The position numbers and the translations under genes were made by a program. Positions 5,608 through 44,941 of a stretch of DNA of 64,000 nt are shown here, piece by piece. The stretch comes from Pasteurellaceae bacterium (lineage in GTDB: Bacteria > Pseudomonadota > Gammaproteobacteria > Enterobacterales > Pasteurellaceae): assembly GCA_030528525.1 (NCBI GenBank), contig JAUMYT010000004.1, positions 68,407 through 132,406 on the forward strand, written 5' to 3'. The number at the start of each line of letters is the position of its first letter. Position 1 is the stretch's first letter. The notes below the pieces were generated by a model. The model was not told the DNA's origin, did no database searches, and worked only from the letters and a program-made list of their open reading frames with translations.

Positions 5608-5667
5608 GTAGGGTGGGCATTCTGCCCACCGTTACGATCTCTTGGTGGGCAAGAATGCCCACCCTAC
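5608..5667. repeat. Family C bipartite palindrome (GTAGG-hairpin...hairpin-CCTAC), copy 1
   Basis: gtagggtgggcattctgcccacc ... ggtgggcaagaatgcccaccctac. Confidence 0.8.
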
Positions 5668-5733
5668 ATTTTTTCGGCATTTTGCCCTGTCGGTTTATTA
5701 ACAAGCGGTGATTTAAGGCAAGCAAAACTTGAT

Positions 5734-5781
5734 GTAGGGACGTACTGCGTACGTCCTTGGGCGTATGCAATACGCCCCTAC
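5734..5781. repeat. Family C palindrome, copy 2
   Basis: gtagggacgtactgcgtacgtcc...gggcgtatgcaatacgcccctac. Confidence 0.8.
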
Positions 5782-5838
5782 GGATAGAGATATTGCTTAA
5801 AAATCCGACCGTTTGTTTTCTCATTTTTAGGAATTGCA

Positions 5839-8481
5839 ATGTCCACACAAGAAAAAACAGTTACCACCGCAAGTTACGACGACTTGCAAGATATGGTGGC
5901 GTCAAACGATTCGGGGGGAAGAAACCCACGTGGGTTTACCAAAAAACTGATCGTTGGCGTGGCAATTTTATGGTCGCTTTTTCAACTCTATTACACTTCG
6001 CCATTTCCATTTTGGCTACAAGAAGTGATCCGCAATGCAGGCATTGATTTGAATGTCGTGATTGATGATACCAAAGCACGCTCCATTCACTTAGCCTTTG
6101 CACTCTTCTTGGCGTATCTCTCATTCCCTGCATTTGCGAACTCGCCAAAACATCGAGTGCCTTATCAAGACTGGATCTTCGCCACCCTTGGGGCATTTTT
6201 AGGAGCGTATTACATCTTCTTCTACGAAGGCTTAGTGACCCGTTTTGGTGCTCCGAATACGCAAGATATTATCGCGGGCTGTTTAGGCGTATTGTTATTA
6301 CTTGAAGCCTGTCGCCGTAGTCTTGGATTACCGCTCGTGATTATCGCTGGCGTGTTCTTGTTGTATAACTACTTCGGGCAATTCTTGCCGACCGATTGGA
6401 TTATCAGCCATCGTTCAGGCTCGCTCTCGCAAATTGTGAACCAACAATGGATCACCACCGAAGGCGTATTCGGCGTGGCGTTGGGCGTTTCGACTAAATA
6501 TGTGTTCTTGTTCGTGTTATTCGGTGCATTATTGGATAAAGCAGGGGCTGGCAACTACTTCATCAAAACTGCTTTTGCCTATTTAGGGCACTTTAGTGGC
6601 GGGCCAGGTAAAGCAGCAGTCGTTTCATCGGGTTTAACAGGATTAGTATCGGGTTCATCTATTGCCAACGTGGTGACCACAGGCACTTTCACTATTCCAA
6701 TGATGAAACGTGTTGGCTTGAATGCCGAAAAAGCTGGGGCGGTGGAAGTTGCTTCATCAGTAAACGGACAAATTATGCCGCCAGTAATGGGGGCAGCTGC
6801 GTTTCTGATGATTGAATACGTCAATATGCCGTACAGCCAGCTGATTACTCACGCTTTCTTGCCTGCGTTCATTTCCTATATCGCCTTGGTGTATATCGTG
6901 CATTTGGAAGCTCAAAAACTTGGTTTGAAAGGCTTAGAGCGTACCGATCCGCCAAATCCAATTTATGTGACGTTAATTCGTGCCTTAGCGAGTTTCCTAG
7001 TGATTTGCATCGTCTATTTCGCAATGGAATTTAGCTTAGGTTGGATTAAAACGGCCGCACCTGATTATGCCTTCTCGATTGTGGCAGCCTTGTTAGCGGT
7101 GGTTTACCTTGCACTCATTCGCCGTGTGGCAAGTTTCCCTGATTTAGAACCAGACGATCCAAACGCACAAATTGTCAAATTGCCGTCCACCAAACCAACG
7201 GTAAACGCAGGCTTGCATTATTTATTGCCTGTGGTGGTGTTGATGTGGTGTTTGATGATCGAACGTATGTCGCCAGGGCTTTCTGCCTTTTGGGGAACAA
7301 TGGCGTTAGCGGTGATTTTGATTACCCAGCGTCCATTGCTCGCCTTCTTCCGCAACGAAAACAGCAATAAATTTGCTCTAGCTAAACAAGGCTTGAACGA
7401 GCTGAAAGACGGCTTGGAAGCAGGGGCAAGAAATATGATCGGCATCGGGATTGCCACCGCAACCGCTGGGATCATCGTAGGTGTGGTTGCCTTAACGGGC
7501 TTTGGTGTACAGCTTTCTGGCATTATCGAAATGCTCTCAATGGGCAACATTTTGTTGATGCTGATCTTAGTCGCCATTTTCAGCTTGATTTTAGGAATGG
7601 GCTTGCCAACCACCGCAAACTACATCGTGGTGTCTTCGTTGATGGCATTAGTGATTGTCGAAATCGGCAAGCAAAACGGCTTAATTGTGCCGTTAATTGC
7701 GGTGCATTTGTTCGTGTTCTACTTCGGTATTATGGCGGACGTGACCCCACCTGTCGGCTTGGCGTCCTTTGCCGCCGCAGCCATTTCGGGCGGTAGCCCA
7801 ATCAAAACTGGGGTACAAGCGTTCTATTACAGCTTGCGAACTGCCGTGTTGCCGTTCCTGTTTATTTTCAACACCGACTTGTTGTTGATTGATGTCGGCT
7901 GGGCGAAAGGCTTACTGGTGTTCGTCACGGCGACCATCGGGATTTTGGTCTTTACCGCCGTCACAATGGGCTATTTCTTCACTCGCAATAAATGGTGGGA
8001 AGGGGTAGTTTTATTGCTCGCCGCCTTTACGCTATTCCGCCCAGGGTTCTTTATGGAACACCTCTCGCCAACGGCACGCCACGTTGAGCCAGCCCAATTA
8101 GTGCAAGAGCTTGAACGCACCCCAGCAGGGCAGAATTTAATGCTCAAAGTATCAGGGCTAAATCCATACGGCAAAGAGATCGAATTTTACTCGCAACTCA
8201 TTGTGCCGGAAGGCAATTCGGGCGAAGAACGGGTGAAAGCACTCGGCTTACTGTTGTTAGACACAGGCGAGAAAATCGAGATTGACGGCAAGCCGTCACC
8301 GAAGATTATCATCGACAACGTGGAAATCGACTCGCCAGCGGCAAAAGCAGGGTTGAACTGGGATCAAGTGCTGCTAGACGTAGCTCTGCCACGGGATTCC
8401 TTACCAAAAGAGCTGATGTTCATTCCAGCGTTATTGCTGATTTTGGGCGTGGCGTGGAATCAACGTCGCCGCCGCAAGTAG
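5839..8481 (+). CDS. TRAP transporter fused permease (TAXI type) with C-terminal extension
   Basis: 880 aa polytopic membrane protein downstream of TAXI receptor gene. Confidence 0.85.
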   Translation: MSTQEKTVTTASYDDLQDMVASNDSGGRNPRGFTKKLIVGVAILWSLFQLYYTSPFPFWLQEVIRNAGIDLNVVIDDTKARSIHLAFALFLAYLSFPAFANSPKHRVPYQDWIFATLGAFLGAYYIFFYEGLVTRFGAPNTQDIIAGCLGVLLLLEACRRSLGLPLVIIAGVFLLYNYFGQFLPTDWIISHRSGSLSQIVNQQWITTEGVFGVALGVSTKYVFLFVLFGALLDKAGAGNYFIKTAFAYLGHFSGGPGKAAVVSSGLTGLVSGSSIANVVTTGTFTIPMMKRVGLNAEKAGAVEVASSVNGQIMPPVMGAAAFLMIEYVNMPYSQLITHAFLPAFISYIALVYIVHLEAQKLGLKGLERTDPPNPIYVTLIRALASFLVICIVYFAMEFSLGWIKTAAPDYAFSIVAALLAVVYLALIRRVASFPDLEPDDPNAQIVKLPSTKPTVNAGLHYLLPVVVLMWCLMIERMSPGLSAFWGTMALAVILITQRPLLAFFRNENSNKFALAKQGLNELKDGLEAGARNMIGIGIATATAGIIVGVVALTGFGVQLSGIIEMLSMGNILLMLILVAIFSLILGMGLPTTANYIVVSSLMALVIVEIGKQNGLIVPLIAVHLFVFYFGIMADVTPPVGLASFAAAAISGGSPIKTGVQAFYYSLRTAVLPFLFIFNTDLLLIDVGWAKGLLVFVTATIGILVFTAVTMGYFFTRNKWWEGVVLLLAAFTLFRPGFFMEHLSPTARHVEPAQLVQELERTPAGQNLMLKVSGLNPYGKEIEFYSQLIVPEGNSGEERVKALGLLLLDTGEKIEIDGKPSPKIIIDNVEIDSPAAKAGLNWDQVLLDVALPRDSLPKELMFIPALLLILGVAWNQRRRRK

Positions 8482-8485
8482 GCTA

Positions 8486-8524
8486 CAAGGGGGGGAGAAA
8501 CTCAAAGATTTTGTAAAATCCCCT
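8486..8524. repeat. Family A repeat (CAAGGGGG-N-TTTTGYAAAA-N-CCCCT)
   Basis: caagggggggagaaactcaaagattttgtaaaatcccct directly after stop codon. Confidence 0.75.
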
Positions 8525-8596
8525 ATGATGAATACGGTTCTTCACTTAAGCGAAGAGCCGTTGATCGTTTAAAAATTTGAGAAAATAGAACATATT

Positions 8597-9331
8597 ATGA
8601 GTGAACAAATCTATGGTATTCATGCAGTAAAGTCGTTTTTAGATAACGCACCAGAACGTTTGATTGATGTGATGGTATTAAAAGGGCGAGAAGATAAGCG
8701 GCTTAATCCGCTACTTAGTGAATTGCAAAAAATGGGCATTGCGGTGCAGCAGGTCAATCGTCAAACGTTAGACAACAAAGCACAAGGCGAGGTACACCAA
8801 GGTATTATTGCTCGCATTGTGCCTGCAAAAGAGCTCAATGAACACGATCTTGACCAGATTCTAGATCAAACCGCTACGCCATTGTTACTGATTTTAGACG
8901 GTGTGACGGATCCACATAATCTTGGTGCTTGTCTGCGAACAGCAGATGCGGCAGGGGTTGATGCGGTGATTGTACCGAAGGATAAGTCAGCACAACTCAC
9001 GTCCACAGCTCGTAAAGTGGCTTGTGGCGCAGCAGAAACGGTGCCGCTGGTGCGTGTGACTAACCTTGCTCGTACTATGCGAGATCTGCAAGCACGAAAC
9101 GTCTGGATTGTCGGTACGGCGGGGGAGGCTGAAGCAAGCCTTTATCAAGCAAAACTCACAGGGGCAATTGCATTGGTGATGGGGGCAGAAGGCGATGGTA
9201 TGCGCCGTTTAACGCGTGAACATTGTGATCAACTTATCAGTATTCCGATGGCAGGTTCAGTTTCTTCACTGAATGTGTCAGTGGCTACGGGAGTGTGCCT
9301 ATTTGAGATTGTACGTCAAGGGCGTATTTGA
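8597..9331 (+). CDS. rlmB: 23S rRNA (guanosine2251-2'-O)-methyltransferase
   Basis: 244 aa SpoU-family methyltransferase, N-terminus matches RlmB. Confidence 0.85.
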
Positions 9332-9364
9332 TTGAGTTAGCACACTGACGATAAATAACGGGGA

Positions 9365-9655
9365 TCAACGGGGCTCCGTTTTTTTACAGCCACACTTAGG
9401 AGGAACAGGATCATCTCCCCCTTCACTCAGTGGGTGGCAGCGGCAAATACGTTTGATGGTTAACCAGCCACCCTTTATTCCACCGTGAATGCGAATCGCA
9501 TCTAGTGCATATTGGGAGCAAGTTGGATAAAAACGGCAGCGAGGCCCGAGTAGCGGGCTGATTGCATAACGGTAGAAATGCACCGCACCAAGCAAGAGAT
9601 AAGCAATTAGACTGGGTTTGGCGTGTTTTTCGCTAGACGAATGTGACGTTGCCAT
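9365..9655 (-). CDS. yidD: membrane protein insertion efficiency factor YidD
   Basis: [29 protein letters not shown] motif; overlaps rnpA 3' end. Confidence 0.85.
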
Positions 9656-9990
9656 AGTTTTTCTAAGGTTTCAAACAGTTCTTGATTGGATAATTTGCCA
9701 ATACCCCCTTTTGCCACAAACACAAAATCACAATGTGGTAGTTCGTGTTGTTTCAAACGGAAGCTTTCTCGCACAAGGCGTTTGATGCGATTGCGGTCGT
9801 GAGCACGTTTTAAATGCTTTTTCGCCACCGTTAAACCCAAGCGGGCATGTTTAATTGTATTGGAGCGAGCTAATAACGTGAGTTGAGGAGTGCTGGCACG
9901 GAAAGGCTGTTCGAAGACTGCCTTAAATTGAACGGGAGCTAACAAACGTAGCTCCCGAGAGAAATTTAGCTTATTCACACTATGTAACAT
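9607..9990 (-). CDS. rnpA: ribonuclease P protein component
   Basis: 127 aa, [23 protein letters not shown] signature; immediately downstream of rpmH. Confidence 0.85.
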
Positions 9991-10025
9991 TGCGTTCTGC
10001 TAGTGTTTTGGCTAGCTTGCTGCAA

Positions 10026-10160
10026 TTATGCAGATAAGCTTTTACGACCTTTAGCACGACGACGTGCTAATACTTGACGACCGTTTTTTGTTGCCATACG
10101 AGCACGGAAACCGTGAGTACGAGCACGTTTTAATACTGATGGTTGAAATGTACGTTTCAT
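10026..10160 (-). CDS. rpmH: 50S ribosomal protein L34
   Basis: Minus-strand translation [44 protein letters not shown]; not in ORF track (<60 aa). Confidence 0.9.
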
Positions 10161-10393
10161 TTGTATCTACCTAAAAATAAAAATTGGCAACAGCCAAATA
10201 AGGAATATGAAAAATAGAGTGCGAATTCTACCGATAAATTTGCCCAAGATCAAGGCAAATTGCGAAAATTGTCTAGGGTAAAAGGCGGGATGGCTGCTGA
10301 TAATTTGCCCATTCCTTGATCTAATCTTATTCTTTTAGACGAAGAATGTGATATGTTATCACACATCAATTGGTCTCATTGAAGGAGAAATGT

Positions 10394-11581
10394 GTGGTTA
10401 ATGCAGTTAAACATTTTTTGAAGCTTGAATCAGCCAGCGGTATTTTACTGATGATTTTTGCCACGTTTGCGATTATTTTGGCGAATACGCCATTTCGTGA
10501 GTGGTATTTTGATTTTTTAGGCATGCCAGTGAGTGTGCAAATTGGTTTATTTAGTATTCATAAACCGTTGTTAATGTGGGTCAATGACGGCTTTATGGCA
10601 GTCTTTTTTGTGTTAGTGGGGCTTGAAGTTAAACGTGAGCTGTTGGAAGGGGCTTTATCTAGCTACCAAAGAGCGATTTTTCCCGCTGTGGGTGCTATTG
10701 GCGGCATGGTGGTCCCTGCACTGATTTATTGGTTTCTCAATCTCGAACACCCAGAGCACCAAGCAGGCTGGGCAATTCCGATGGCAACGGATATTGCGTT
10801 TGCACTCGGTGTGTTGGCGTTACTCGGTAAACGTGTCCCATTTGCGTTGAAAATTTTCTTATTGGCACTGGCTATTATTGATGACCTTGGTGCGATTGTG
10901 GTCATTGCTATCTTTTTCTCTCATGAATTAAGTACCACTGCGTTAGTTTCCGCAGGCTTGGCGATTGCTGTTTTGGTGATGATGAACCGTATGAAAGTGA
11001 CTGCGTTGTGTGCTTATATGGTCGTAGGCTTGATTTTATGGGCATCTGTGCTGAAATCAGGGGTGCATGCAACGCTCGCAGGAGTAATTATTGGCTTTTG
11101 TGTGCCTTTGAAGGGAAAAAATGGTGAAACGCCACTCCATCAGTTTGAACACATTCTTGCTCCTTGGTGCTCATTTGTGATTCTGCCGCTGTTCGCTTTT
11201 TCAAATGCCGGCGTGACCATTTCCGGTATGGGGTTGAATAGTTTCACCTCAACGTTAACGCTAGGGGTTATCTTTGGTCTTTTGGTTGGAAAAAGCTTGG
11301 GCGTGTTTGGTTTCAGTTATCTTGCTGTGAAACTTGGTATTGCGAAATTATCAGAAGGGATTAATTTCAAGCAGATTTTTGCGGTCTCCGTGTTGTGTGG
11401 CATTGGATTTACCATGTCGATGTTTTTAGCCGGTCTTGCTTTTGGAGGGGAAGAGGCTGATGGTAAGTTTATCTCATTGGCACGTTTAGGGATTTTGATT
11501 GGTTCATCTGTTTCGGCAATCTTAGGTTACTACTTGCTCAAATGTTTCACCACACCAGTTGTTGAAGCTGAGAAAGCTTAG
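10394..11581 (+). CDS. nhaA: Na+/H+ antiporter NhaA
   Basis: Aligns to E. coli NhaA from [15 protein letters not shown]...; likely GTG start at 10394 with AAGGAG 6 nt upstream (ORF track TTG at 10370 also possible). Confidence 0.85.
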
Positions 11582-11593
11582 GTAAGATTGCGA

Positions 11594-11625
11594 CAAGGGG
11601 GTGAGAAAAATCGATTTTTTGTCAA
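11594..11625. repeat. Family A repeat (half element)
   Basis: caagggggtgagaaaaatcgattttttgtc. Confidence 0.6.
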
Positions 11626-11681
11626 TATTCATCAATGCAAACAGGCTATATTTGTAGATATAGCCTGTTTTATTTTATGTA

Positions 11682-12431
11682 TTAATCAAAAAGCACATAA
11701 GCAATAGCGATAAGTGCACCAGCACCTACAAGAAGTGGCAAGAAACGGGCGAACTGGCAAGGAGAGCAGTTATCCGATTTATTGCAGGCTTGTGGTGTTG
11801 TTTCAGTGTTTTTTACTTTTTTACTGGTGTAAATCGTGGCTTCGTTGAAGGCTTTTTCAAATTCCTGAGCGGTGTTTTTCATCGCTAATTTGGTTGATGT
11901 GCGATACATTGGTTTGCCTTCAAATTTACTTAGATCTACATCAATATCAGTGGCAATAAACACTAAATCAGCAGCTTGTACTTCTTCTGCTGTAATTAAA
12001 TTGTTTGCACCAATTTGCCCTCGGGTTTCAATTTTGATATTCCAACCTTGGGTTTTGGCGTAATTAGAAATGGCTTCTGCAGACATAAAGGTTTGTGCTA
12101 CGCCCGTTGGACAAGCGGTTACTGCTACAATGTTTTTAGTTTTGCCATGATTTTCTAGTGGTGTGTCTTCTACGTGCAGCGGGGCTGCATCGGCGATCGC
12201 TTGCTGTAATGTAGTTTCAGGTTGGTTTAACGCTTGCTCAAGATCGACAATAGCCCCTTTTCTACCAATAAGGTTAGCTGGAACGCTTGGTTCAAACAGT
12301 AGCACAATATCAGCTTGTTCGGTTGCAACAATTTGGTGTTGTTGTTGGGTTGCTGCGTTTGTTAGTGCTTGTTCAACGAGAAATTGGCGAGCATTGCCAA
12401 GTTGTGCCGGAAAAACGAAAGAAATGTTCAT
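11682..12431 (-). pseudogene. fruA: PTS fructose-specific IIB'-IIB fragment (truncated fruA-like, ends inside first TM helix)
   Basis: 249 aa matches FruA residues 1-~215 (KNIVAVTACPTGVAQTFMSAEAI) then stops after one TM segment; full FruA IIC domain (~350 aa) missing. Confidence 0.5.
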
Positions 12432-12776
12432 GAGAAAGTCCTATATGTGTCAAAATAAATGATATTGCGAGGAGTGAGTTATCCTGTTTACGATTTGCAA
12501 TACCGATGAAATGGTTTGCATGGTTAAGTTTAACGCATTCAGCAGGCTGAATGTGGGTTTAAATGATAAATTTAGCCTAGCGACCACACAGTTTACAATG
12601 AGTTTACTGTGTGGCACTAGGGCTTGTAGTACGCCCTCAAGGTTGAGAAACGTTTCATGAACACCCGTTTAGTATGCTACATTTTCAATGCCCTTAGCCT
12701 GTAATCGAGCAATGACAACAGTGTATAACGGGAGCAAGGAACATTTCTTCAACGCTCAAGTTCTTGGCGATTGGGT

Positions 12777-13904: not shown

Positions 13905-14045
13905 TGGATTCCTAGTTCACAGCGTTTTTCATTAACAGGTCGGTTAGAAATTGTAGCGTTTTAACTGTAAAGTGGTACAGTTAAAACGTAAAGAGAAATA
14001 AAAAAATCCTATCATTGTAAATGTTAGGATTTTTATGGTGACATG

Positions 14046-14465
14046 CTATGACATGATTTCATTTGAGGTGAAGAAATAAGCTATTTCACGTTTTGCTGAA
14101 GCATCAGAATCAGAGCCGTGTACTGAATTTTCTTGGTAGCTTAACGCGTAGTGATCGCGAATCGTGCCTTTTTCTCGTTTAGCGGGATCGGTTGCCCCCA
14201 TGAGGTTACGATAATGGCTAACTGCGTTTTCCCCTTCTAATACTACCACGACAACAGGTGCAGAACTCATAAAATGGACTAGAGGAGCAAAAAACGGCTT
14301 ACCTTGATGCTCGGCATAAAATCCTTCTGCTTGAGCTTGGGTTAAATGTAGCATCTTTAATGCTTTGATTTCTAAGCCATTTTGTTCAAGCAAGGACAAT
14401 ATCTCGCCAATGAGATGACGTCTCGTAATGTCGGGTTTGATAATCGCAAGGGTTTGTTGTCTCAT
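14046..14465 (-). CDS. ndk: nucleoside diphosphate kinase
   Basis: Start at internal Met ([12 protein letters not shown]...); NDK signature NAVHGSDS; ORF track start 14534 is an upstream extension. Confidence 0.9.
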
Positions 14466-14539
14466 AGGGCTCTCCTTTATAAGTATGTTGACATGGTTGT
14501 CTTGTAAATAAGGTGGGCAAATACCCACCTTCACTTTCC

Positions 14540-18802: not shown

Positions 18803-18877
18803 TGGCTGGAGTACTAGGATTCGAACCTAGGAATGCTGGGATCAAAACCCAGTGCCTTACCGCTTGGCGATACTCCA
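18803..18877 (-). tRNA. tRNA-Gln (anticodon TTG)
   Basis: Reverse complement TGGAGTATCGCCAAGCGGTAAGGCACTGGGTTTTGATCCCAGC...CTCCAGCCA; cloverleaf with TTG anticodon. Confidence 0.85.
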
Positions 18878-18914
18878 AAAGAAAAAACTAACCTAAAGTT
18901 AGTTATATTTGATA

Positions 18915-18989
18915 AGAAATAAGATGGCTGGAGTACTAGGATTCGAACCTAGGAATGCTGGGATCAAAACCCAGTGCCTTACCGCTTGG
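18915..18989 (-). tRNA. tRNA-Gln (anticodon TTG), second identical copy
   Basis: Identical 75-nt sequence to previous copy. Confidence 0.85.
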
Positions 18990-19024
18990 CGATACTCCAG
19001 TCGTTTTATTTGCTAAGCCATAAA

Positions 19025-19109
19025 TGGTGCGGGACGAGGGACTTGAACCCACACACCTCTCGGCGCCAGAACCTAAATCTGGTGCGTCTACCAATTTCGC
19101 CAGTCCCGC
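19025..19109 (-). tRNA. tRNA-Leu (anticodon TAG)
   Basis: Reverse complement GCGGGACTGGCGAAATTGGTAGACGCACCAGATTTAGGTTCTGG...; long variable arm; near-identical to E. coli leuW. Confidence 0.85.
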
Positions 19110-19111
19110 AA

Positions 19112-19188
19112 TGGTGGCTACAACGAGATTCGAACTTGTGACCCCAACATTATGAGTGTTGTGCTCTAACCAGCTGAGCTATGTAGCC
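19112..19188 (-). tRNA. tRNA-Met (elongator, anticodon CAT)
   Basis: Reverse complement GGCTACATAGCTCAGCTGGTTAGAGCACAACACTCATAATGTTGGGGTCACAAGTTCGAATCTCGTTGTAGCCACCA. Confidence 0.85.
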
Positions 19189-22028: not shown

Positions 22029-22072
22029 CGTGGGAATATAACAAAAATGCGGTGAAATACCGCATTGAAAAT

Positions 22073-22136
22073 GTAGGATGGGCTTCAGCCCATCAAAAAA
22101 TCATAAAAAAGTGTGATGAGCTAAAGCCCATCCTAC
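22073..22136. repeat. Family C palindrome, copy 3 (recA-recX intergenic)
   Basis: gtaggatgggcttcagcccatc...gatgagctaaagcccatcctac. Confidence 0.8.
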
Positions 22137-25007: not shown

Positions 25008-25077
25008 GTAGGGGCGAACCTATGTGTTCGCCCTCTCTAATTTTGGTATTCGGGCGGACACACAGGTCCGCCCCTAC
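25008..25077. repeat. Family C palindrome, copy 4
   Basis: gtaggggcgaacctatgtgttcgccc...gggcggacacacaggtccgcccctac. Confidence 0.8.
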
Positions 25078-26141: not shown

Positions 26142-26240
26142 GGAGCGAAAAGTCAGTTCCTGTCTCAAATCCCTACGCTGATATTAGTCAGATCAGGTTC
26201 TATGGGTATTTCTCAGCTTTGCGAACAAAGCACCCCAATG
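26142..26240 (-). promoter_or_regulatory. TPP riboswitch (THI element) in thiB leader
   Basis: Minus strand GGGGTGC...GCTGAGAAATACCC...GAACCTGATCTGACTAATATCAGCGTAGGGA matches the THI-box consensus. Confidence 0.8.
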
Positions 26241-26278
26241 AGAACGGGCGGATTATACCGCTGTTAAAGAAAGTGGTG

Positions 26279-28578: not shown

Positions 28579-28750
28579 CTCTCTCCCGTTTACGGGAGAG
28601 AGACAGCAAAAAATGCGTTCAGTATTTTTTGCAGAGAGAGGGCAACAAGTAGTGATGTATCACTTATTTTTAAATTTAGAAGCCCTCTCCCTCCGAAAAT
28701 CCTATGGATTTTCTCCACCCTCTCCCGTAAACGGGAGAGGGTAATTGATA
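28579..28750. repeat. Family B MITE-like element with hairpin termini (CCCGTTTACGGG)
   Basis: ctctctcccgtttacgggagagagac...ccctctcccgtaaacgggagaggg. Confidence 0.75.
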
Positions 28751-28813: not shown

Positions 28814-28879
28814 GTAGGATGGGCTTTAGCCCATCAATATCATAAATAGATTAAAATGATGGGCTAAAGCCCATCCTAC
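28814..28879. repeat. Family C palindrome, copy 5
   Basis: gtaggatgggctttagcccatc...gatgggctaaagcccatcctac. Confidence 0.8.
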
Positions 28880-30227: not shown

Positions 30228-30286
30228 GGCAAGCGGTGCGATGAGTAATGTTTTTTACACATCGTGCCGTTTTTGTAATCATTATG

Positions 30287-30345
30287 TAGGATGGGCTTTA
30301 GCCCATCCTACAGATATTTGAGTGATGGGCTAAAGCCCATCCTAC
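30287..30345. repeat. Family C palindrome, copy 6 (two hairpins each followed by CCTAC)
   Basis: gtaggatgggctttagcccatcctac...gatgggctaaagcccatcctac. Confidence 0.8.
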
Positions 30346-31020: not shown

Positions 31021-31063
31021 CAAGGGGGCAGATTTTTGAAAAAATCTGCAAAATCTTTTTGGG
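31021..31063. repeat. Family A repeat
   Basis: caagggggcagatttttgaaaaaatctgcaaaatctttttggg, directly after rpiA stop. Confidence 0.7.
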
Positions 31064-31170
31064 ACGTATGCAATACGTCCCTACATTAGATGATGATCGA
31101 AAAATGGGAAAAATCCCCGTTTGTAGGGGCGTATTGCATACGCCCACGGACGCAAACATTGCGTCCCTAC
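31061..31170. repeat. Family C compound element (three hairpins framed by GTAGG/CCTAC)
   Basis: gggacgtatgcaatacgtccctac...gtaggggcgtattgcatacgccc acggacgcaaacattgcgtccctac. Confidence 0.75.
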
Positions 31171-34822: not shown

Positions 34823-34844
34823 TTCGTGCTATGAGAAGTTTGGA

Positions 34845-36440: not shown

Positions 36441-36551
36441 TGGATCTCCTATTGGATATGAATAAAAATGAGTGTTTCTTGTACAAGATAACGATATTTA
36501 CGTCAAAGGTAAAGTACAAATTTTTGTGTGATATAACCAAAAGCTATATAC

Positions 36552-36585
36552 AAGGGGGTGAGTTCAGCACACTTTTTGTAAAAAT
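36552..36585. repeat. Family A repeat
   Basis: caagggggtgagttcagcacactttttgtaaaaa. Confidence 0.65.
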
Positions 36586-36629
36586 ATGACGCATAGAAGA
36601 ACTTCCCCCCAATCACTCCTCAACAAAAA

Positions 36630-37961: not shown

Positions 37962-38078
37962 AACGATTTCCTTCCATTAAAAAATAAAACCTCCTTATTG
38001 TACGCCATTTGATCAATGTAAATTTTATCTAGGTCAAACAATCGCGGATTAATCCCAAATTTTTGTTTTTCATCACAA

Positions 38079-38112
38079 CAAGGGGGTGAGAAAGAGAGCG
38101 TTTTTGCAAAAA
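38079..38112. repeat. Family A repeat
   Basis: caagggggtgagaaagagagcgtttttgcaaaaa. Confidence 0.7.
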
Positions 38113-38230
38113 TATCCATTCAGATGAGAATTTTTTAGTCAATGTAAAATATTGCAAAATTCTTAAAGAAACCGTTTGCATTTTTATGTTGGCTCAGTTA
38201 TAGTCTCGTCCATTCATTTTAGGAGTTCTT

Positions 38231-38275
38231 ATGTTTACTTTTGCTATCCATCATCATCACCATTTCCCTGAATAA
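38231..38275 (+). CDS. His-rich leader peptide MFTFAIHHHHHFPE
   Basis: AGGAG RBS 5 nt upstream; five consecutive His codons; followed by hairpins and terminator before transporter gene. Confidence 0.6.
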   Translation: MFTFAIHHHHHFPE

Positions 38276-38362
38276 TCTTTCGGGCATTTGGCGTGTTCGG
38301 AAGAACTTCCGAACAATCGAAATGTGATAAATGATAGCAAATTAAGCATAAACCATTTCAAA

Positions 38363-38405
38363 CCCCTTCGGAAGTCCAAACTTTCGAAGGGGTTTTCTTT
38401 TTCAT
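38363..38405 (+). terminator. Attenuator terminator
   Basis: CCCTTCGGAAGT-ccaa-ACTTTCGAAGGG followed by GTTTTCTTTTTC; upstream CTTCCGAA can alternatively pair with the 5' arm. Confidence 0.65.
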
Positions 38406-38436
38406 TTTAAATTTCATCTTACAGGAGAAAAAAACG

Positions 38437-39825
38437 ATGCTATTGGCAAATGAAGTCGTCATCTCAATTATCGTGTTGCTCGCATTAAGTTTAATGCGAA
38501 TCAATGTGGTAATTGCGTTGATCATCGCCGCACTCACTTGCGGTATTTTGGGTAACTACGGTAATGTGGTTGAAGGCAATACCGTTGGGCTGGCAGATGC
38601 CTTGTCGGCTACGGTAAAAAGTTTCACGGGCGGTTTAGGCGGTGGGGCCGAAACGGCGATGAACTATGCGGTACTCGGGGCATTCGCTGTGGCGTTATCC
38701 AAATCAGGTGTGACTGATCTGTTGGCGTACAAAGTGATCCAAGCCTTTGGCAAACGCCCGTCAGGTCGTTCGATGTTTTGGTTTAAATACACGGTGCTGT
38801 TTGTGTTGGTGGCGTTCTCAATGTCGTCACAGAACTTGATCCCTGTACACATTGCATTTATTCCAATCGTGGTTCCACCGTTGTTGAGCGTATTTAACCA
38901 ACTCAAAATCGACCGCCGTGCTGTCGCCTGTGCCTTAACTTTCGGTTTAACGGCGACTTATATGTTGATTCCAGCAGGCTTCGGGCAGATCTTTATTGAG
39001 AGCATTTTGGTTAAAAACATCAACCAAGCTGGACAAGAATTCGGCTTAGCAACCGATGTGGCAGGTGTCACCAAAGCCATGGCAGTGCCTGTCATTGGCA
39101 TGATTTTGGGTTTACTTACGGCGATTTTTATCAGCTATCGCAAGCCTCGTCAGTACGCAACGAACAGCACTGTTCAAGTAGACGATTTAGAAAGCCGTGT
39201 GGCAGGTGTGACCAAATTTAACATTGGCGTGAGCGTACTGGCGATTGTCGCAACCGGTTTTGTGCAATTAGCAACTAACTCGACCATTCTTGGCGGTTTA
39301 ATCGGCTTGGTGATCTTCGCTTTGGGTGGCGTATTCAAACTCAAACAATCCAACGACATTTTCCAAGACGGCTTGCGTTTAATGGCAATGATCGGTTTTG
39401 TAATGATTGCCGCATCAGGCTACGCCAGCGTAGTGAAATCCACAGGCGGCGTAGTGGAATTGGTTGAAAGCATCAAAGGAGCAATCAGCTCAAAAGAGAT
39501 GGCAGCGTTCTTGATGTTATTGGTCGGCTTGTTCATCACAATGGGCATTGGCTCATCCTTCTCAACTGTGCCAATTATCGCCACCATTTATGTGCCACTG
39601 TGTATGTCGTTTGGCTTCTCACCACTTGCGACCATTGCGATTGTAGGCGTTGCTGCTGCCCTTGGCGATGCAGGTTCACCAGCCTCTGACTCAACTCTTG
39701 GGCCAACATCTGGTTTGAATGCAGACGGCAAACACGACCACATTTGGGATTCTGTTGTACCTACCTTCTTACACTATAACATTCCGTTGTTAGTCTTTGG
39801 TTGGGTTGCGGCAATGGTGTTATAA
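38437..39825 (+). CDS. NhaC-family transporter (YuiF/HutT-like, putative histidine importer)
   Basis: 462 aa polytopic membrane protein; preceded by His-codon leader and attenuator. Confidence 0.75.
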   Translation: MLLANEVVISIIVLLALSLMRINVVIALIIAALTCGILGNYGNVVEGNTVGLADALSATVKSFTGGLGGGAETAMNYAVLGAFAVALSKSGVTDLLAYKVIQAFGKRPSGRSMFWFKYTVLFVLVAFSMSSQNLIPVHIAFIPIVVPPLLSVFNQLKIDRRAVACALTFGLTATYMLIPAGFGQIFIESILVKNINQAGQEFGLATDVAGVTKAMAVPVIGMILGLLTAIFISYRKPRQYATNSTVQVDDLESRVAGVTKFNIGVSVLAIVATGFVQLATNSTILGGLIGLVIFALGGVFKLKQSNDIFQDGLRLMAMIGFVMIAASGYASVVKSTGGVVELVESIKGAISSKEMAAFLMLLVGLFITMGIGSSFSTVPIIATIYVPLCMSFGFSPLATIAIVGVAAALGDAGSPASDSTLGPTSGLNADGKHDHIWDSVVPTFLHYNIPLLVFGWVAAMVL

Positions 39826-39837
39826 GTCTAACGCCGA

Positions 39838-39890
39838 CAAGGGGGTAAGAAAACCCAACTTTTTATAAAACATAGGGGAAATATCCCCCT
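39838..39890. repeat. Family A repeat (complete palindromic form)
   Basis: caagggggtaagaaaacccaactttttataaaacataggggaaatatccccct. Confidence 0.75.
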
Positions 39891-40010
39891 TAGCCGAAAA
39901 AAATGATTGCAACTCATCAAAAAATCGGTATATTCCAAAACTGTCTTATTTTCTAAACAATTGTAACATTTTAATAACAACACAACATTTCAACTCAACA
40001 GGAGTGAACT

Positions 40011-41606
40011 ATGCAAAAACTCACTAAGCTCTCTTTCATTGCACTCGCCGTCATTTCAGGTACGGCAATGGCAGCACCAAAAACCTTCGTCTATTGTAGT
40101 GAAGCATCGCCTTCGTTTCTTAGCCCACAGTTAGGCACAGATGGGGCAACGTTGGACGCGTCAGGTCAGCCGATGTTTAACCGTTTAACAGCATTTGAAG
40201 CTGGCACAACCAATATTATTCCATCATTGGCAGAAAAATGGGATGTGTCAGAAGACGGTAAAACTTACACTTTCCACTTGCGTAAAGGCGTGAAATTCCA
40301 CGCTAACAAAGTGTTTAAACCAACCCGTGACTTCAATGCCGATGACGTTTTATTCTCTTTCAATCGTCAGTTAGATCCAAATCACCCATATCACAAAGTG
40401 TCAGGCGGCACTTACGAATACTTCACCGGTATGGATATGCAAAACATTATCGACAAAGTGGAAAAAGTCGATGATTACACCGTGAAAATTAGCCTAAAAG
40501 TGGCGAACGCCCCGTTTTTAGCGAACTTGGCGATGGATTTTGCCTCTATTCTGTCTGCCGAATATGGCGACAAAATGCTCAAAGCGGGCAAACCTGAAAC
40601 CGTGGATAACCAACCAATCGGCACTGGCCCGTTTGAATTTGTCTCTTATCAAAAAGATTCCACAGTGCGTTTCAAAGCCTTTGAACAATACTGGGCAGGC
40701 AAAGCGAAAATCGATCGCTTAGTGTTTGCGATTACGCCTGACGCGTCGGTGCGTTATGCCAAATTGAAAAAAGGTGAATGCCACGCAATGCCATATCCAA
40801 ACCCAGCGGACGTGGAAAAACTCAAAACCGATTCCGAAATTGAGTTGCTCACTCGCCCTGGTTTGAACATTGGCTATCTCAACTTCAACGTGCAAAAAGC
40901 CCCGTTTGACAATGTGAAAGTCCGTCAAGCGTTAAGCTATGCGGTAAACAAAGATGCGATCATTGAAGCGGTTTACCAAGGGGCTGGGCAAAAAGCGAAA
41001 AACCCAATTCCACCAACAATGTGGTCGTACAATGAAGACGTGAAAGATTACGACTACGATCCAGAAAAAGCCAAAGCATTGTTGAAAGAAGCAGGCTTTG
41101 AGAACGGCTTTGAAACGGATTTATGGGCAATGCCTGTTTCTCGTCCGTACAACCCGAACGCTCGCCGTATGGCGGAATTAGTTCAAGCCGACTGGGAAAA
41201 AGTGGGCGTGAAAGCGAAAATTGTTAGCTACGAATGGGGTGAATACCTCAAACGGATGCGTGCAGGCGATCACCAAACGGGTATGATGGGCTGGACGGGC
41301 GACAACGGCGACCCAGACAACTTCTTGAACACTTTGTTAAGCTGTGCAGCGGTGAACTCAGGGTCTAACTATGCGAAATTCTGCCACAAAGAGTTTGATG
41401 GCATTGTGACCAAAGCCGCTCAAGAAACCGATGTGGCAAAACGTACCGAGCTGTACAAACAAGCTCAGTTGCTGTTTAAAGAACAAGCCCCGTGGATCAC
41501 CGTGGCTCACTCCACCACCTACTTCCCAGTACGCAAAGAAGTGAAAGGCTATGTGGTTAGCCCATTCGGCTTACACGATTTCTACCCTGTGGAGTTAGCG
41601 AAGTAA
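40011..41606 (+). CDS. dppA: dipeptide ABC transporter substrate-binding protein
   Basis: 531 aa; near collinear match to E. coli DppA. Confidence 0.9.
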   Translation: MQKLTKLSFIALAVISGTAMAAPKTFVYCSEASPSFLSPQLGTDGATLDASGQPMFNRLTAFEAGTTNIIPSLAEKWDVSEDGKTYTFHLRKGVKFHANKVFKPTRDFNADDVLFSFNRQLDPNHPYHKVSGGTYEYFTGMDMQNIIDKVEKVDDYTVKISLKVANAPFLANLAMDFASILSAEYGDKMLKAGKPETVDNQPIGTGPFEFVSYQKDSTVRFKAFEQYWAGKAKIDRLVFAITPDASVRYAKLKKGECHAMPYPNPADVEKLKTDSEIELLTRPGLNIGYLNFNVQKAPFDNVKVRQALSYAVNKDAIIEAVYQGAGQKAKNPIPPTMWSYNEDVKDYDYDPEKAKALLKEAGFENGFETDLWAMPVSRPYNPNARRMAELVQADWEKVGVKAKIVSYEWGEYLKRMRAGDHQTGMMGWTGDNGDPDNFLNTLLSCAAVNSGSNYAKFCHKEFDGIVTKAAQETDVAKRTELYKQAQLLFKEQAPWITVAHSTTYFPVRKEVKGYVVSPFGLHDFYPVELAK

Positions 41607-41611
41607 GCCTA

Positions 41612-41668
41612 CAAGGGGTAAGATTGTTCGGATTTTTTGCAAAATTTTGTTAAAATCTGACCCCCTTG
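41612..41668. repeat. Family A repeat (complete palindrome)
   Basis: caaggggtaagattgttcggattttttgcaaaattttgttaaaatctgacccccttg. Confidence 0.8.
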
Positions 41669-41677
41669 TGAGATCAA

Positions 41678-41790
41678 AATCTGCCCCCGCTTGCGGGGGA
41701 AGTGGTTGAGCGAAGCGAAACCGAAGGGGGCGATAATTACCCCCTACCCCTTGCTTCGCAAGGTACTTCCCCCGTAAACGGGGGCAGAAT
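41678..41790. repeat. Family B MITE-like element
   Basis: atctgcccccgcttgcgggggaagt...acttcccccgtaaacgggggcagaat inverted termini. Confidence 0.8.
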
Positions 41791-41807
41791 AAATTAAGAG
41801 ATTTTCA

Positions 41808-42812
41808 ATGTTTCAGTTTGTTATTAAACGTATTTTAATGGTGATCCCAACCTTTTTAGCGATCACTTTGATTACCTTTGCCTTGGTGCATTTAATCCCT
41901 GGCGATCCGATTGAGATCCGAATGGGGGAGCGTGGGCTGACCCCAGAAGTTCACGCCCAAATGATGCAACAGCTCGGTTTAGATCGCCCCTTGCCAGAAC
42001 AGTATTTCAGCTATATCAAAGGCGTGTTACAAGGCGATTTAGGCAACTCTTTCCGCAATAATGAACCCGTATTGAAAGAGTTTTTCACGCTATTTCCTGC
42101 TACGGTAGAACTGGCGATTTTTGCATTAGGCTGGTCGCTGATTGGCGGCGTGATTTTGGGCGTAATTGCGGCAGTGAGAAAGGATTCGTGGATTTCGCAT
42201 ATCGTAACTTCTATGTCACTCACTGGCTACTCAATGCCGATTTTCTGGTGGGGCTTGATTTTGATTTTATACTTGTCCACGCCACTTGGCTTGCCTGCAT
42301 CGGGGCGTTTGCCGTCCGAATATTGGATCGAAGCCGAAACTGGCTTTATGTTAATTGATACGTGGAACTCGGACGAGCCAGGCGCATTTGCGGCAGCGAT
42401 TAAATCGCTGATTTTGCCTGCGGTGGTTCTCGGCACCATTCCCCTTGCGATCATCACGCGTATGACCCGTTCATCAATGCTGGAAGTGCTTGGCGAAGAC
42501 TATATCCGTACTGCCAAAGCCAAAGGCTTGAACACCACTCGCATTGTGATCGTCCACGCCTTACGCAATGCGTTAATTCCTGTGGTAACCGTGGTCGGTT
42601 TGATTATCGGGCAGCTATTATCAGGTGCGGTGCTGACGGAAAATATCTTCTCCTGGCCAGGCATCGGCAAATGGGTGATTGATGCGATCAACTCCCGTGA
42701 TTACCCTGTGTTACAAGGCTCGGTATTGATTATTGCCACCTTGATTATTTTAGTGAATTTAACGGTCGATTTGATTTACGGTATCGTGAATCCACGGATT
42801 CGGCATAATTAG
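41808..42812 (+). CDS. dppB: dipeptide ABC transporter permease
   Basis: 334 aa BPD-transporter permease. Confidence 0.9.
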   Translation: MFQFVIKRILMVIPTFLAITLITFALVHLIPGDPIEIRMGERGLTPEVHAQMMQQLGLDRPLPEQYFSYIKGVLQGDLGNSFRNNEPVLKEFFTLFPATVELAIFALGWSLIGGVILGVIAAVRKDSWISHIVTSMSLTGYSMPIFWWGLILILYLSTPLGLPASGRLPSEYWIEAETGFMLIDTWNSDEPGAFAAAIKSLILPAVVLGTIPLAIITRMTRSSMLEVLGEDYIRTAKAKGLNTTRIVIVHALRNALIPVVTVVGLIIGQLLSGAVLTENIFSWPGIGKWVIDAINSRDYPVLQGSVLIIATLIILVNLTVDLIYGIVNPRIRHN

Positions 42813-42822
42813 AAAATAACCA

Positions 42823-42950
42823 TCCCCTCCCCCGTTTACGGGGGAGGGATAGGGTGGGAGGAACAATTTTGCAAAACGTGGCATAAATTCAGCCCCCGTT
42901 GCTTCGCAATCTCCCCTCCCCAGCCCTCCCCCGCAAGCGGAGGAGGGAGT
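42823..42950. repeat. Family B MITE-like element
   Basis: atcccctcccccgtttacgggggagggat...ccctcccccgcaagcggaggagggag. Confidence 0.75.
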
Positions 42951-42980
42951 ATTTAAAATTGAATTTTAGTTGGAGTATCA

Positions 42981-43871
42981 ATGTCTAGTATTGAACTAAC
43001 TTCCCCTGCACCCAAAACGCCCTTGCAGGAATTTTGGCACTATTTTTGCCAAAACCGTGGGGCAGTCATCGGGTTAGCCTTTATTGCGGTGGTGTTTATC
43101 TGTAGCGTGTTTGCAGATTTCATCGCCCCATTCGATCCCATCGAACAGAACCGTTCTGCCTTGTTACTGCCACCGATGTGGTTTGAAGGCGGCAACAGTG
43201 CCTATATTTTAGGCACAGACGACATCGGGCGGGATATTCTTTCTCGAATCATTCACGGAGCAAGACTGTCGGTGTTTATCGGCTTAGTGATCGTGTTGCT
43301 CTCTTGCGTGTGTGGCGTGATTTTGGGCTTGCTCGCAGGCTATTACGGCGGAATGATCGACATCATCATTATGCGATTTGTCGATATTATGTTGGCGATC
43401 CCAAGCCTACTTTTAACCATTGGCGTAGTGACGATTCTCGGGCCTGATCTGATTAACGCTGCCATTGCGATTGCCGTGGTGTCGATTCCCAGCTATGTGC
43501 GTTTAACGCGTGCCTCGGTAATGAGTGAAAAAAATCGGGATTATGTCACCGCTTCTCGTGTGGCAGGAGCAGGCGTATGGCGATTGATGTTTGTGGTGAT
43601 TTTGCCCAACTGCCTTGCACCGCTTATCGTGCAAATGACAATGGGGATTTCTAACGCCATTTTAGAGCTTGCCGCTCTCGGCTTCTTAGGCATTGGTGCA
43701 CAACCGCCAACGCCAGAGCTTGGCACAATGCTTGCCGAATCTCGTGGTTTTATGCAGTCGGCAAACTGGTTGGTCACAATCCCAGGTTTGGCAATTTTAT
43801 CGCTCGTGCTTGCCTTTAACTTAATGGGTGACGGCTTGCGTGATGCCCTTGATCCAAAATTAAAACAGTAG
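42981..43871 (+). CDS. dppC: dipeptide ABC transporter permease
   Basis: 296 aa. Confidence 0.9.
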   Translation: MSSIELTSPAPKTPLQEFWHYFCQNRGAVIGLAFIAVVFICSVFADFIAPFDPIEQNRSALLLPPMWFEGGNSAYILGTDDIGRDILSRIIHGARLSVFIGLVIVLLSCVCGVILGLLAGYYGGMIDIIIMRFVDIMLAIPSLLLTIGVVTILGPDLINAAIAIAVVSIPSYVRLTRASVMSEKNRDYVTASRVAGAGVWRLMFVVILPNCLAPLIVQMTMGISNAILELAALGFLGIGAQPPTPELGTMLAESRGFMQSANWLVTIPGLAILSLVLAFNLMGDGLRDALDPKLKQ

Positions 43872-43880
43872 GAGCGGAAA

Positions 43881-44858
43881 ATGGCATTATTAGAAGTAAA
43901 CGAACTTTCCGTGCATTTTGGCGATCAAAAAGCCCCGTTTAAAGCGGTGGATCGCATTAGTTATACGGTCAATGAGGGCGAAGTACTGGGCATTGTGGGC
44001 GAATCGGGGTCGGGCAAATCGGTCAGTTCCTTGGCAATTATGGGCTTGATTGACTACCCAGGTAAAGTGTACGCCAACGCCCTGCAATTTAATGGCAACG
44101 ATTTGTTAGCGTTAAGCTCGAAAGAGAAGCAGAAAATTGTTGGGGCTGATGTGTCGATGATTTTCCAAGATGCGATGACTAGCCTCAACCCAAGCTACAC
44201 CGTCGGTTTCCAAATTATGGAAGCCTTGAAAGTGCATCAAGGTGGCAGCAAAAGTTGGCGAAAAGAACGTGCAATCGAATTGCTGACAATGGTCGGCATT
44301 CCTGACCCAACGTCTCGCCTTGATGTTTATCCGCACCAACTGTCTGGCGGTATGAGCCAGCGTGTGATGATTGCAATGGCGATTGCCTGTAACCCAAAAC
44401 TGCTGATTGCAGATGAACCAACAACTGCATTAGACGTGACCATTCAAGCCCAAATCATCGACTTACTGCTTGAGCTGCAACGTAAAGAGAATATGGCGTT
44501 GATTTTGATTACCCACGATTTAGCGTTAGTGGCGGAGTCCGCTCACCGCATTATTGTGATGTACGCAGGGCAAGTGGTGGAAGAAGGCAGAGCGGAAGAG
44601 ATTTTCAAATCGCCGCTGCACCCTTACACGCAGGCATTATTGCGTGCCTTGCCTGAATTTGCCGAAGGCAAATCTCGCTTGCAGTCGCTCCCTGGTGTTG
44701 TACCTGGGAAATACGACCGCCCACAAGGCTGCCTGCTCAACCCACGCTGCCCGTATGCCACCGACTTGTGTCGTTCCCAAGAGCCTGCATTGCAAATGCT
44801 CAATGGACGACAAGTGAAGTGCCATACGCCATTGAATGCGGAAGGGTTGCCTAGCTGA
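43881..44858 (+). CDS. dppD: dipeptide ABC transporter ATP-binding protein
   Basis: Walker [17 protein letters not shown] signature. Confidence 0.9.
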
Positions 44859-44878
44859 TTGATTATAGGTAGGGGCGG

Positions 44879-44941
44879 ACCTAGGTGTCCGCCCGTTATC
44901 ATTAAATCATTTTTCGGGCGAACACATAGGTTCGCCCCTAC
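44879..44941. repeat. Family C palindrome, copy 8 (between dppD and dppF)
   Basis: gtaggggcggacctaggtgtccgccc...gggcgaacacataggttcgcccctac. Confidence 0.8.

Follow-up and report, generated by a model that had tools for sequence, protein, structure and literature searches.

Between the genes of a 64,000-nucleotide stretch of DNA from a Pasteurellaceae bacterium (GenBank assembly GCA_030528525.1, contig JAUMYT010000004.1, positions 68,407 to 132,406; here called the window), short palindromes recur that open with GTAGG, close with CCTAC, and enclose hairpins differing in sequence from copy to copy. The question raised by these elements is whether they are repetitive extragenic palindromes (REPs), the substrates of REP-associated tyrosine transposases (RAYTs), or hairpins that arose at the ends of genes in some other way. 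An earlier note on this DNA had compared them to REPs and to bacterial interspersed mosaic elements (BIMEs), and this identification holds on the strength of their anatomy, their published counterparts, the RAYT genes that adjoin them in other genomes, and their presence or absence as blocks. We consider it very likely that the elements are GTAG-tagged REPs, mostly arranged as head-to-head doublets resembling BIMEs or REPINs (REP doublets forming hairpins), and that they are members of REP families common to the Pasteurellaceae. This assignment is made because their anatomy matches the published definition, including dimers, heterodimers, and complementary subfamilies; because the same or related REP types adjoin RAYT genes in other genomes; and because a doublet present in the window is absent from a relative with 98% RecX identity.

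GTAG-tagged REPs are defined by a 5' GTAG head, a GC-rich palindrome with a short loop, an arrangement in inverted pairs, and a location in gaps between co-directional genes (PMC2817692, PMC3733652). A total of 18 REP units was identified in the window, each made up of GTAG, an 8-bp stem, and a loop of 2 to 6 nt. At all eight loci the GTAG is unpaired and the stem lies directly 3' of it, always beginning with G, followed by the loop and the complementary arm. An unpaired 5' GT(A/G)G head adjoining a GC-rich palindrome with a short loop was found in 18 of 18 units. The earlier note had taken all stems to be perfectly self-complementary, which is true of 17 units; 143 of the 144 stem positions are Watson-Crick pairs, and the remaining one, in the unit at 22115-22136 on the minus strand, is a G.T pair. 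Sixteen of the 18 units form eight head-to-head inverted pairs with GTAG facing outward (GTAGG...CCTAC) and a span of 48 to 73 bp, and each of these eight doublets has the REPIN or BIME layout of inverted REPs with a short spacer that could fold into one long hairpin. The only single unit is at 31062-31084, while at 30286-30311 the hairpin is prolonged into a 26-nt full palindrome that can be read as a REP on either strand. No conserved cleavage dinucleotide or target motif was evident in the flanks of the window units.

The eight copies counted in the earlier note all exist as loci, but they hold 18 units, and some of their boundaries were redrawn: two start positions moved (from 44879 to 44869 and from 30287 to 30286), and the supposed single copy at 31061-31170 was resolved into the single unit at 31062-31084 (minus strand) and a tight doublet at 31123-31170. 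Eight distinct stems were found, representing four types: type A (GGTGGGCA), type B (GATGGGCT), type C (GGGCGAAC or GGGCGGAC), and type D (GGGCGTAT, GGACGTAT, GGACGTAC, or GGACGCAA). The units are as follows.

5608-5630, plus strand: REP type A, GTAG-GGTGGGCA-TTC-TGCCCACC, left arm of doublet 5608-5667; 27.0 bits with the covariance model
5644-5667, minus strand: REP type A, right arm of doublet 5608-5667, 19 nt past the stop codon of the TAXI solute-binding-protein gene
5734-5756, plus strand: REP type D variant, GGACGTAC-TGC, left arm of tight doublet 5734-5781, spacer of 2 nt
5759-5781, minus strand: REP type D, GGGCGTAT-TGC, right arm of doublet 5734-5781, 57 nt ahead of the TRAP permease start
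22073-22094, plus strand: REP type B, GATGGGCT-TC, arm of doublet 22073-22136 in the recA-recX gap
22115-22136, minus strand: REP type B with one G.T pair, starting 2 nt past the recA stop codon
25008-25033, plus strand: REP type C, GGGCGAAC-CTATGT, arm of heterodimer 25008-25077 in the thiB-pabB gap
25052-25077, minus strand: REP type C variant, GGGCGGAC-CTGTGT, with a compensated A-T to G-C change relative to its partner at 25008
28814-28835, plus strand: REP type B, left arm of doublet 28814-28879 between ilvA and glmM
28858-28879, minus strand: REP type B, right arm of doublet 28814-28879, ending 13 nt ahead of the glmM ATG
30286-30311, both strands: REP type B, full palindrome GTAGGATGGGCTTTAGCCCATCCTAC, plus reading 30286-30307 and minus reading 30290-30311
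30324-30345, minus strand: REP type B, partner of 30286, ending 12 nt ahead of the rpiA ATG
31062-31084, minus strand: single REP, type D variant, GGACGTAT-TGC, 41 nt past the rpiA stop codon
31123-31145, plus strand: REP type D, GGGCGTAT-TGC, left arm of tight doublet 31123-31170
31148-31170, minus strand: REP type D variant, GGACGCAA-TGT, right arm of doublet 31123-31170, 35 nt ahead of the serA ATG
44869-44894, plus strand: REP type C variant, GGGCGGAC-CTAGGT, left arm of heterodimer 44869-44941, 10 nt past the dppD stop codon
44916-44941, minus strand: REP type C, GGGCGAAC-CTATGT, right arm of heterodimer 44869-44941, 14 nt ahead of the dppF ATG

The units far exceed chance expectation. 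Eighteen sites in the window combine GTAG with a following perfect stem of 8 bp or longer (17 family units and an unrelated hairpin at 13953), whereas 30 Markov simulations averaged 0.17 such sites and never gave more than 1. When sites were chosen by pentamer and location only, so that the hairpin was not presupposed, 18 of the 26 intergenic GTAGG sites were followed by an 8-bp stem with no more than one mismatch, and the other eight had three to five mismatches; a perfect stem followed none of the 34 GTAGG sites in coding sequence. Using a covariance model built from the units, a search that the earlier note had proposed for the whole genome and that was run here on the window with filters off, exactly 18 units were recovered at 21.9 bits or more. 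The next independent match scored 12 bits and the score distribution was bimodal, a gap from which it follows that the window holds no half-decayed REP copies.

It had also been proposed that the differing stems reflect covariation that keeps the structure, a proposal that variation with broken pairing would have contradicted. In the 18 window units, 100% of the stem cells are paired, and both sides change at six of the eight stem positions, always with compensation. The covariation score was 0.90, compared with 0.25 in shuffles (0 of 500 shuffles as high), and pairing dropped to 32 to 45% when the register was slid. Because unequal loop lengths led MAFFT to misalign the 3' arms, the loops were brought to a common length with Ns, placed in the loop only, before pairs were counted and the covariance model was built. 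The compensation is real, but it comes from a few amplified types (eight stems in four types, with at least about six compensated steps within types) rather than from the numerous independent substitutions that mark an RNA family; moreover, stem covariation is already a textbook feature of REPs.

Exact REP sequences of the window recur verbatim across phyla, at a minimum of 95 genome loci and on a minimum of 120 metagenome contigs. The genome loci were found with the type-B 22-mer in a scan of one genome per species; by our own estimate, about one chance match would be expected for 20 fixed bases in the genome collection. Among the matches listed, the Pasteurellaceae with type B included Caviibacterium, Histophilus, Bisgaard taxa, Actinobacillus porcinus, Avibacterium, Bibersteinia, and [Haemophilus] felis, and those elsewhere included Cardiobacterium, Planctomycetota, Chloroflexia, Synergistales, Acetobacteraceae, Moraxellaceae, Pseudomonas, and others; several genomes among these matches supply many type-B loci each. 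In Caviibacterium the type-B doublets have a common 23-nt spacer, indicating that the doublet was copied whole there. Type C was also found in Phycisphaerae and Avibacterium loci, and type-A-like stems were found in Pseudomonas, Frateuria, and Cardiobacterium. The metagenome contigs, ranging in GC content from 27 to 69%, carry the exact type-D 23-mer (e.g., 31123-31145). No match to type B was found in viral contigs, which thus give no sign of phage carriage.

Some of these loci also carry genes of a probable RAYT family, in which the motifs HIHGII (HUH) and WQRNYYEHIIR (tyrosine) are present. Genes with HUH and WQRNYYEHIIR were identified in two of the 95 listed type-B loci, one from Histophilus somni (L010) and one from a Chloroflexia metagenome-assembled genome (L037), and in eight of the 120 listed type-D metagenome loci an HI0554-like RAYT gene has a type-D REP directly upstream of or inside it. 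The family has at least 7,939 homologues at E < 1e-10, with H. influenzae HI_0554 and an Ursidibacter protein among its members, and many of them bear the Joint Genome Institute (JGI) label "REP element-mobilizing transposase RayT." Its sole match in the PDB is E. coli TnpA-REP, 4ER8 (E = 6e-4). In H. influenzae and Ursidibacter arcticus the HI0554-like RAYT gene lies between pgl and gnd (L103:6001-6558, L104:4001-4543), and this common slot indicates vertical inheritance of a single-copy, domesticated gene. Both genes are flanked by GTAG-GGGC[A/T]AAT-TAC REPs, which resemble type C of the window. For the genome studied here, a link to an enzyme, including a putative active cognate RAYT, is inferred from these genes of its relatives.

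RecX homologues assign the window to the Pasteurellaceae. Among named species, Frederiksenia canicola and Vespertiliibacter pulmonis match best, with 74 to 75% RecX identity; identities of 98% and 92% were found on Logan contigs, and RpiA shares 96% identity with its Frederiksenia counterpart. The window has a recA-recX gap of 110 nt; the corresponding lengths are 51 nt for the 98% relative (L098), 43 nt for Frederiksenia, and 50 nt for Vespertiliibacter. In an alignment of the gap, the 64-nt REP doublet appears as a block insertion or deletion beside a conserved uptake-signal-like terminator hairpin; it is absent from the site in L098 as well as in the Frederiksenia and Vespertiliibacter loci (L100, L101). 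Since it is lacking in the 98% relative, the pair must have been gained or lost as a unit, and no target duplication was visible in the alignment. The thiB-pabB doublet is also absent in Frederiksenia and Vespertiliibacter (L100, L101).

At three other sites, F. canicola (L106) retains orthologous elements: doublets at ilvA-glmM and glmM-rpiA and a right-end remnant at rpiA-serA (2435-2520, 3929-3995, and 4690-4730). The ilvA-glmM doublet has a different stem, the glmM-rpiA doublet is partly decayed, and a third species (L108) is without the glmM-rpiA doublet. The Frederiksenia orthologues thus show either another stem type or decay (one mismatch, one truncated arm), and no REPs were found in two other 20-kb loci, from Frederiksenia and Vespertiliibacter. 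In this sister genus, the REP population seems to be disappearing.

Several observations weigh against the assignment to GTAG-tagged REPs served by a RAYT. A tblastn search of the 64-kb window with E. coli RayT and a pair of RAYTs taken from REP loci found no RAYT gene, so that the gene sought on the suggestion of the earlier note is not in this stretch. The RAYT family of the related loci matches NCBIfam REP_Tyr_transpos (NF047646) at E = 2e-19, but its 70 bits lie below the 80-bit cutoff, and it is subthreshold for Pfam Y1_Tnp, as is E. coli RayT. The RAYT gene of H. somni is not immediately flanked by REPs. The doublet spacers in the window are unrelated in sequence, so the conserved spacer that would mark the doublet as the replicated unit was not seen among the window copies, which speaks against one master doublet having been amplified here very recently. 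The ilvA-glmM, glmM-rpiA, and rpiA-serA sites are occupied in Frederiksenia too, which makes these insertions old rather than recent.

Three of these points, namely, the lack of a RAYT gene in the window, the unconserved spacers, and the sites held in common with Frederiksenia, could be accommodated if the elements were relics, spread by an ancestral RAYT and now immobile, with perfect stems kept by gene conversion, templated correction of quasi-palindromes, or selection on the transcribed hairpin. We regard this as unlikely, although it is the best of the alternatives: all 18 units are intact, with no intermediates, while the orthologues in REP-poor Frederiksenia have decayed, and the recA-recX doublet differs from a 98% relative, so that gain or loss has been recent. 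The GTAG-tagged REPs of the window are old residents of the lineage that are gained or lost as units and that are intact here while decaying in a REP-poor relative.

All eight loci are intergenic and are flanked by co-directional genes. According to NCBIfam scans, the flanking pairs are a TAXI solute-binding protein and a fused TRAP permease, recA and recX, thiB and pabB, ilvA and glmM, glmM and rpiA, rpiA and serA, and dppD and dppF, confirming the placement of copies in the recA-recX, dppD-dppF, and TAXI-TRAP gaps that had been given before. The loci lie 2 to 244 nt past the upstream stop codon and 12 to 70 nt ahead of the downstream start codon. When folded as sense RNA, each doublet yields one long hairpin, with energies between -31 and -50 kcal/mol and z-scores between -6 and -12. 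Such very stable folds between cotranscribed genes, several of them 2 to 58 nt past a stop codon or 12 to 14 nt ahead of a start codon, could suggest cis-regulatory RNA hairpins, whether mRNA stabilizers, attenuators, or translation modulators, that arose and were selected in place with no mobility at the DNA level. Two further details fit that idea, as the lone imperfect pair is G.U on the recA transcript and the two type-C heterodimers face the same way with respect to transcription, giving more G.U than A.C in the RNA hairpin. As a sole explanation it is nonetheless very improbable and was largely refuted, since it leaves unexplained why identical 22- to 26-nt sequences recur at operons and in phyla that are unrelated, why the unpaired GTAG head never varies, why RAYT genes are associated with the elements, and why whole blocks are present or absent. 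Nor is it a true alternative to REPs: a REP lying in an operon gap is transcribed and can serve, as a secondary effect, as an RNA hairpin. No Rfam covariance model matched any of the repeats at its gathering score; elsewhere in the window such models matched a TPP (thiamine pyrophosphate) riboswitch upstream of thiB (26152-26247), a histidine operon leader (38251-38399), and four clustered tRNA genes (18806-19188).

The two type-C heterodimers (25008-25077 and 44869-44941) each join a GGAC arm to a GAAC arm and, though on opposite strands, are oriented alike relative to transcription. In the transcript hairpin, two of the three arm differences are G.U pairs and not A.C mismatches. With only two cases, the common orientation may be due to chance.

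It is scarcely credible that the doublets are intrinsic terminators or uptake-signal hairpins of the sort typical of Pasteurellaceae gene ends. Inverted uptake-signal pairs are frequent terminators in this family, and a consensus scan did mark a few single hairpins with a T-rich spacer (22132-22115, 28875-28858, and 25011-25034), but T-runs follow only a few units and most doublets have none after the outer CCTAC; doublets also sit within operons such as dppD-dppF, 12 to 14 nt ahead of start codons, and contain no uptake-signal core. In the recA-recX gap, the genuine terminator of uptake-signal type is a different hairpin, which is conserved and lies beside the doublet. Least probable of all are miniature inverted-repeat transposable elements (MITEs), deletion derivatives of insertion sequences moved by a DDE transposase through terminal inverted repeats, which would account for short (48 to 73 bp), intergenic, inverted-repeat elements but not for the lack of a visible target-site duplication at recA-recX, the folding of each arm as a hairpin with its own GTAG head, the single unit at 31062-31084, the differing arms of the heterodimers, or associated genes that are HUH-Y1 and not DDE.

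The hairpin in the recA-recX gap (AATGCGGT...ACCGCATT, 22046-22066) is followed by a T-run and is conserved in four of the four species compared; it looks like the native terminator or attenuator of recA, and the REP doublet is situated between it and the recA stop codon. In the ilvA-glmM spacer, which is approximately 220 to 250 nt longer than in relatives, two similar GA/CT-rich palindromes were also observed, CTCTCCCGTTTACGGGAGAG (28581-28600) and CTCTCCCGTAAACGGGAGAG (28720-28739).

A second repeat family was identified in the window, with 22 copies of a roughly 30-nt sequence of the form RCAAGGGGG-nn-AGA-N~10-TTTTGCA and core CAAGGGGG, located mostly just past stop codons:

Copies of the CAAGGGGG repeat: 8486, 11594, 13325, 16665, 17063, 19648, 23671, 26279, 28791, 31021, 36551
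Further copies of the CAAGGGGG repeat: 38079, 39838, 41668, 46093, 50277, 53966, 54021, 55171, 59048, 61634, 63758

This repeat resembles the Pasteurellaceae uptake signal sequence (Apl-type core ACAAGCGGT with an AT-rich tail) but differs from it in the core. Canonical uptake cores are rare in the window, with six occurrences of the Apl-type ACAAGCGGT and two of AAGTGCGGT, and Frederiksenia has ACAAGCGGCT at the orthologous spot after rpiA. The CAAGGGGG repeat may represent a new uptake-signal dialect.

How GTAG-tagged REPs could have come to occupy these gaps is suggested by characterized REP and RAYT pairs. Binding and cleavage of single-stranded REPs have been reported for the E. coli, Stenotrophomonas maltophilia, and Marinomonas enzymes, and complex formation and cleavage by the H. 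parasuis RAYT are cited as unpublished by Charnavets et al. 2015 (PMC4690160). The S. maltophilia REP is cleaved only if GTAG is present; cleavage is almost lost with a mismatch in the stem and only mildly affected by complementary swaps (Corneloup et al. 2021; PMC8266576). By analogy, a unit in single-stranded DNA would fold into an 8-bp hairpin following the unpaired GTAG, and a RAYT (TnpA-REP, of the HUH-Y1 family) would recognize the GTAG and the intact stem, cut, and rejoin nearby, whereby units or doublets would be copied or exchanged without target-site duplication. An enzyme that needs a perfect stem yet tolerates complementary swaps would leave only compensated variants active, and the compensated variation of the stems may exist because the enzyme reads the GTAG and the intact hairpin. 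Templated correction in quasi-palindromes could make both changes in one step. Once fixed between cotranscribed genes, the REPs would be transcribed as hairpins, probably acting secondarily as barriers to 3' exonucleases or as attenuators that uncouple neighboring cistrons, such as binding protein from permease or recA from recX. A secondary role of this kind is likely because of the intercistronic position of the elements.

At least one perfect GTAG REP was also found inside the open reading frame (ORF), in frame and just past the HUH motif, in 11 of the 12 HI0554-like RAYT genes for which DNA was available. The REP within the gene is of the same type as the REPs flanking it or nearby, and there are often two with a variable spacer:

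REPs within RAYT genes: L104:4285-4307, L010:1599-1621, L037:5280-5307, L178:5349-5371, L213:370
Further REPs within RAYT genes: L228:2301, L199:14230, L153:9404/9562/9752, L114:1056, L131:7876

Their translations include GRMQYAPT, GVCNTPLQ, GKCNLPLQ, GECNSPLH, and VGASGRTPL. Across 54 homologues with both anchor motifs, this region is a hypervariable insert of 20 to 142 amino acids, typically starting with VGAxNxSP and ending with GAxxFSPL. No description of REPs inside RAYT ORFs was found in the REP and RAYT literature searched, the coverage of which is incomplete, such that novelty is not thereby proven.

We tentatively raise the possibility, which we consider less likely than not, that an ancient and slowly evolving RAYT-REP partnership uses a small, near-universal repertoire of hairpins and has the RAYT gene itself as a conserved substrate, as opposed to species-specific, coevolving pairs. 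Within such a partnership the RAYT gene might serve as a substrate for self-regulation or for seeding new REPs. Verbatim sharing of REPs across phyla and in-frame REPs in RAYT genes could matter more than the window itself for understanding the persistence of RAYTs and REPs. More immediately, the 48- to 73-bp doublets should be masked in annotation as REPs and not be taken for terminators, small RNAs, or novel structured RNAs; REPs inside operons (recA-recX, dppD-dppF, and binding protein-permease) may tune relative expression; and the relatives provide a clean example of block gain or loss of REPs together with decay in a REP-poor sister genus.

Among known systems, the REPs of H. influenzae Rd and H. 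(Glaesserella) parasuis come from the same bacterial family and are built to the same plan as those in the window, with GTAG, an 8-bp perfect stem, and a 2- to 4-nt loop. The earlier note had mentioned intergenic dyads of the GTAGGGTGGGC type from Haemophilus as possible members of the same superfamily, and this is borne out by Table 1 of Nunvar et al. 2010 (PMC2817692), in which RAYT NP_438385 of H. influenzae Rd is listed with the REP GTAGGGTGGGCTTYAGCCCACC. The same study gives GTAGGGTGGGTCTTGACCCACC with a RAYT for H. parasuis and also a RAYT for the GTAGGGTGGGCT type (PMC2817692). The H. influenzae sequence GTAGGGTGGGCTTYAGCCCACC is one compensated G-C/A-T pair away from type B of the window and differs from type A in the last stem pair and the loop, and its exact form is present at L104:3075. 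A Haemophilus RAYT was placed by Bertels et al. 2017 in Group 4, which is widely distributed and slowly evolving. In contrast to the Haemophilus cases, the host is a different species (best named RecX matches of 74 to 75%), four stem types coexist in the window, and types C and D are not listed for Haemophilus.

The broader GTAG superfamily was described by Di Nocera et al. 2013 as comprising families with head-to-head dimers, heterodimers, and complementary subfamilies, some of them common to distant taxa (PMC3733652). The window REPs resemble this superfamily and REPINs (PMC3733652, PMC3116915) in their outward GTAG doublets with spacers of 1 to 5 bp or approximately 20 bp, and they share with the superfamily its complementary subfamilies, heterodimers, location in gaps between unidirectional ORFs, several families per genome, and sharing among distant taxa. 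Pasteurellaceae are not mentioned in that survey, and its supplementary files contain no sequences matching the window types, hence no number from GTAG-1 to GTAG-24 could be assigned. Classic REPINs (Bertels and Rainey 2011; PMC3116915) differ in that the spacers in the window are not conserved, while those in Caviibacterium are.

The S. maltophilia REPtron Sm, from the perfect-palindrome TnpA-REP group, has units of the same design (23 nt, with GTAG, an 8-bp perfect palindrome, and a 3-nt loop; PMC8266576) but different stem sequences, and the HI0554-like RAYTs near the window REP types are only distantly related to characterized enzymes, as the 4ER8 match indicates. REPs and BIMEs of E. coli (Y, Z1, and Z2, with RayT/YafM) share the GTAG head, the alternation of inverted units of two kinds, the intercistronic location, and the association with a RAYT; however, the window units are short, perfect palindromes, whereas those of E. 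coli are longer, imperfect palindromes with a bulge. In E. coli, REPs and BIMEs occupy the malE-malF and hisJ-hisQ gaps, beside genes for binding proteins. The kind of element found here is well known, and near-identical sequences have been published for Haemophilus; what is new is the addition of this host species to the list of those with GTAG REPs.

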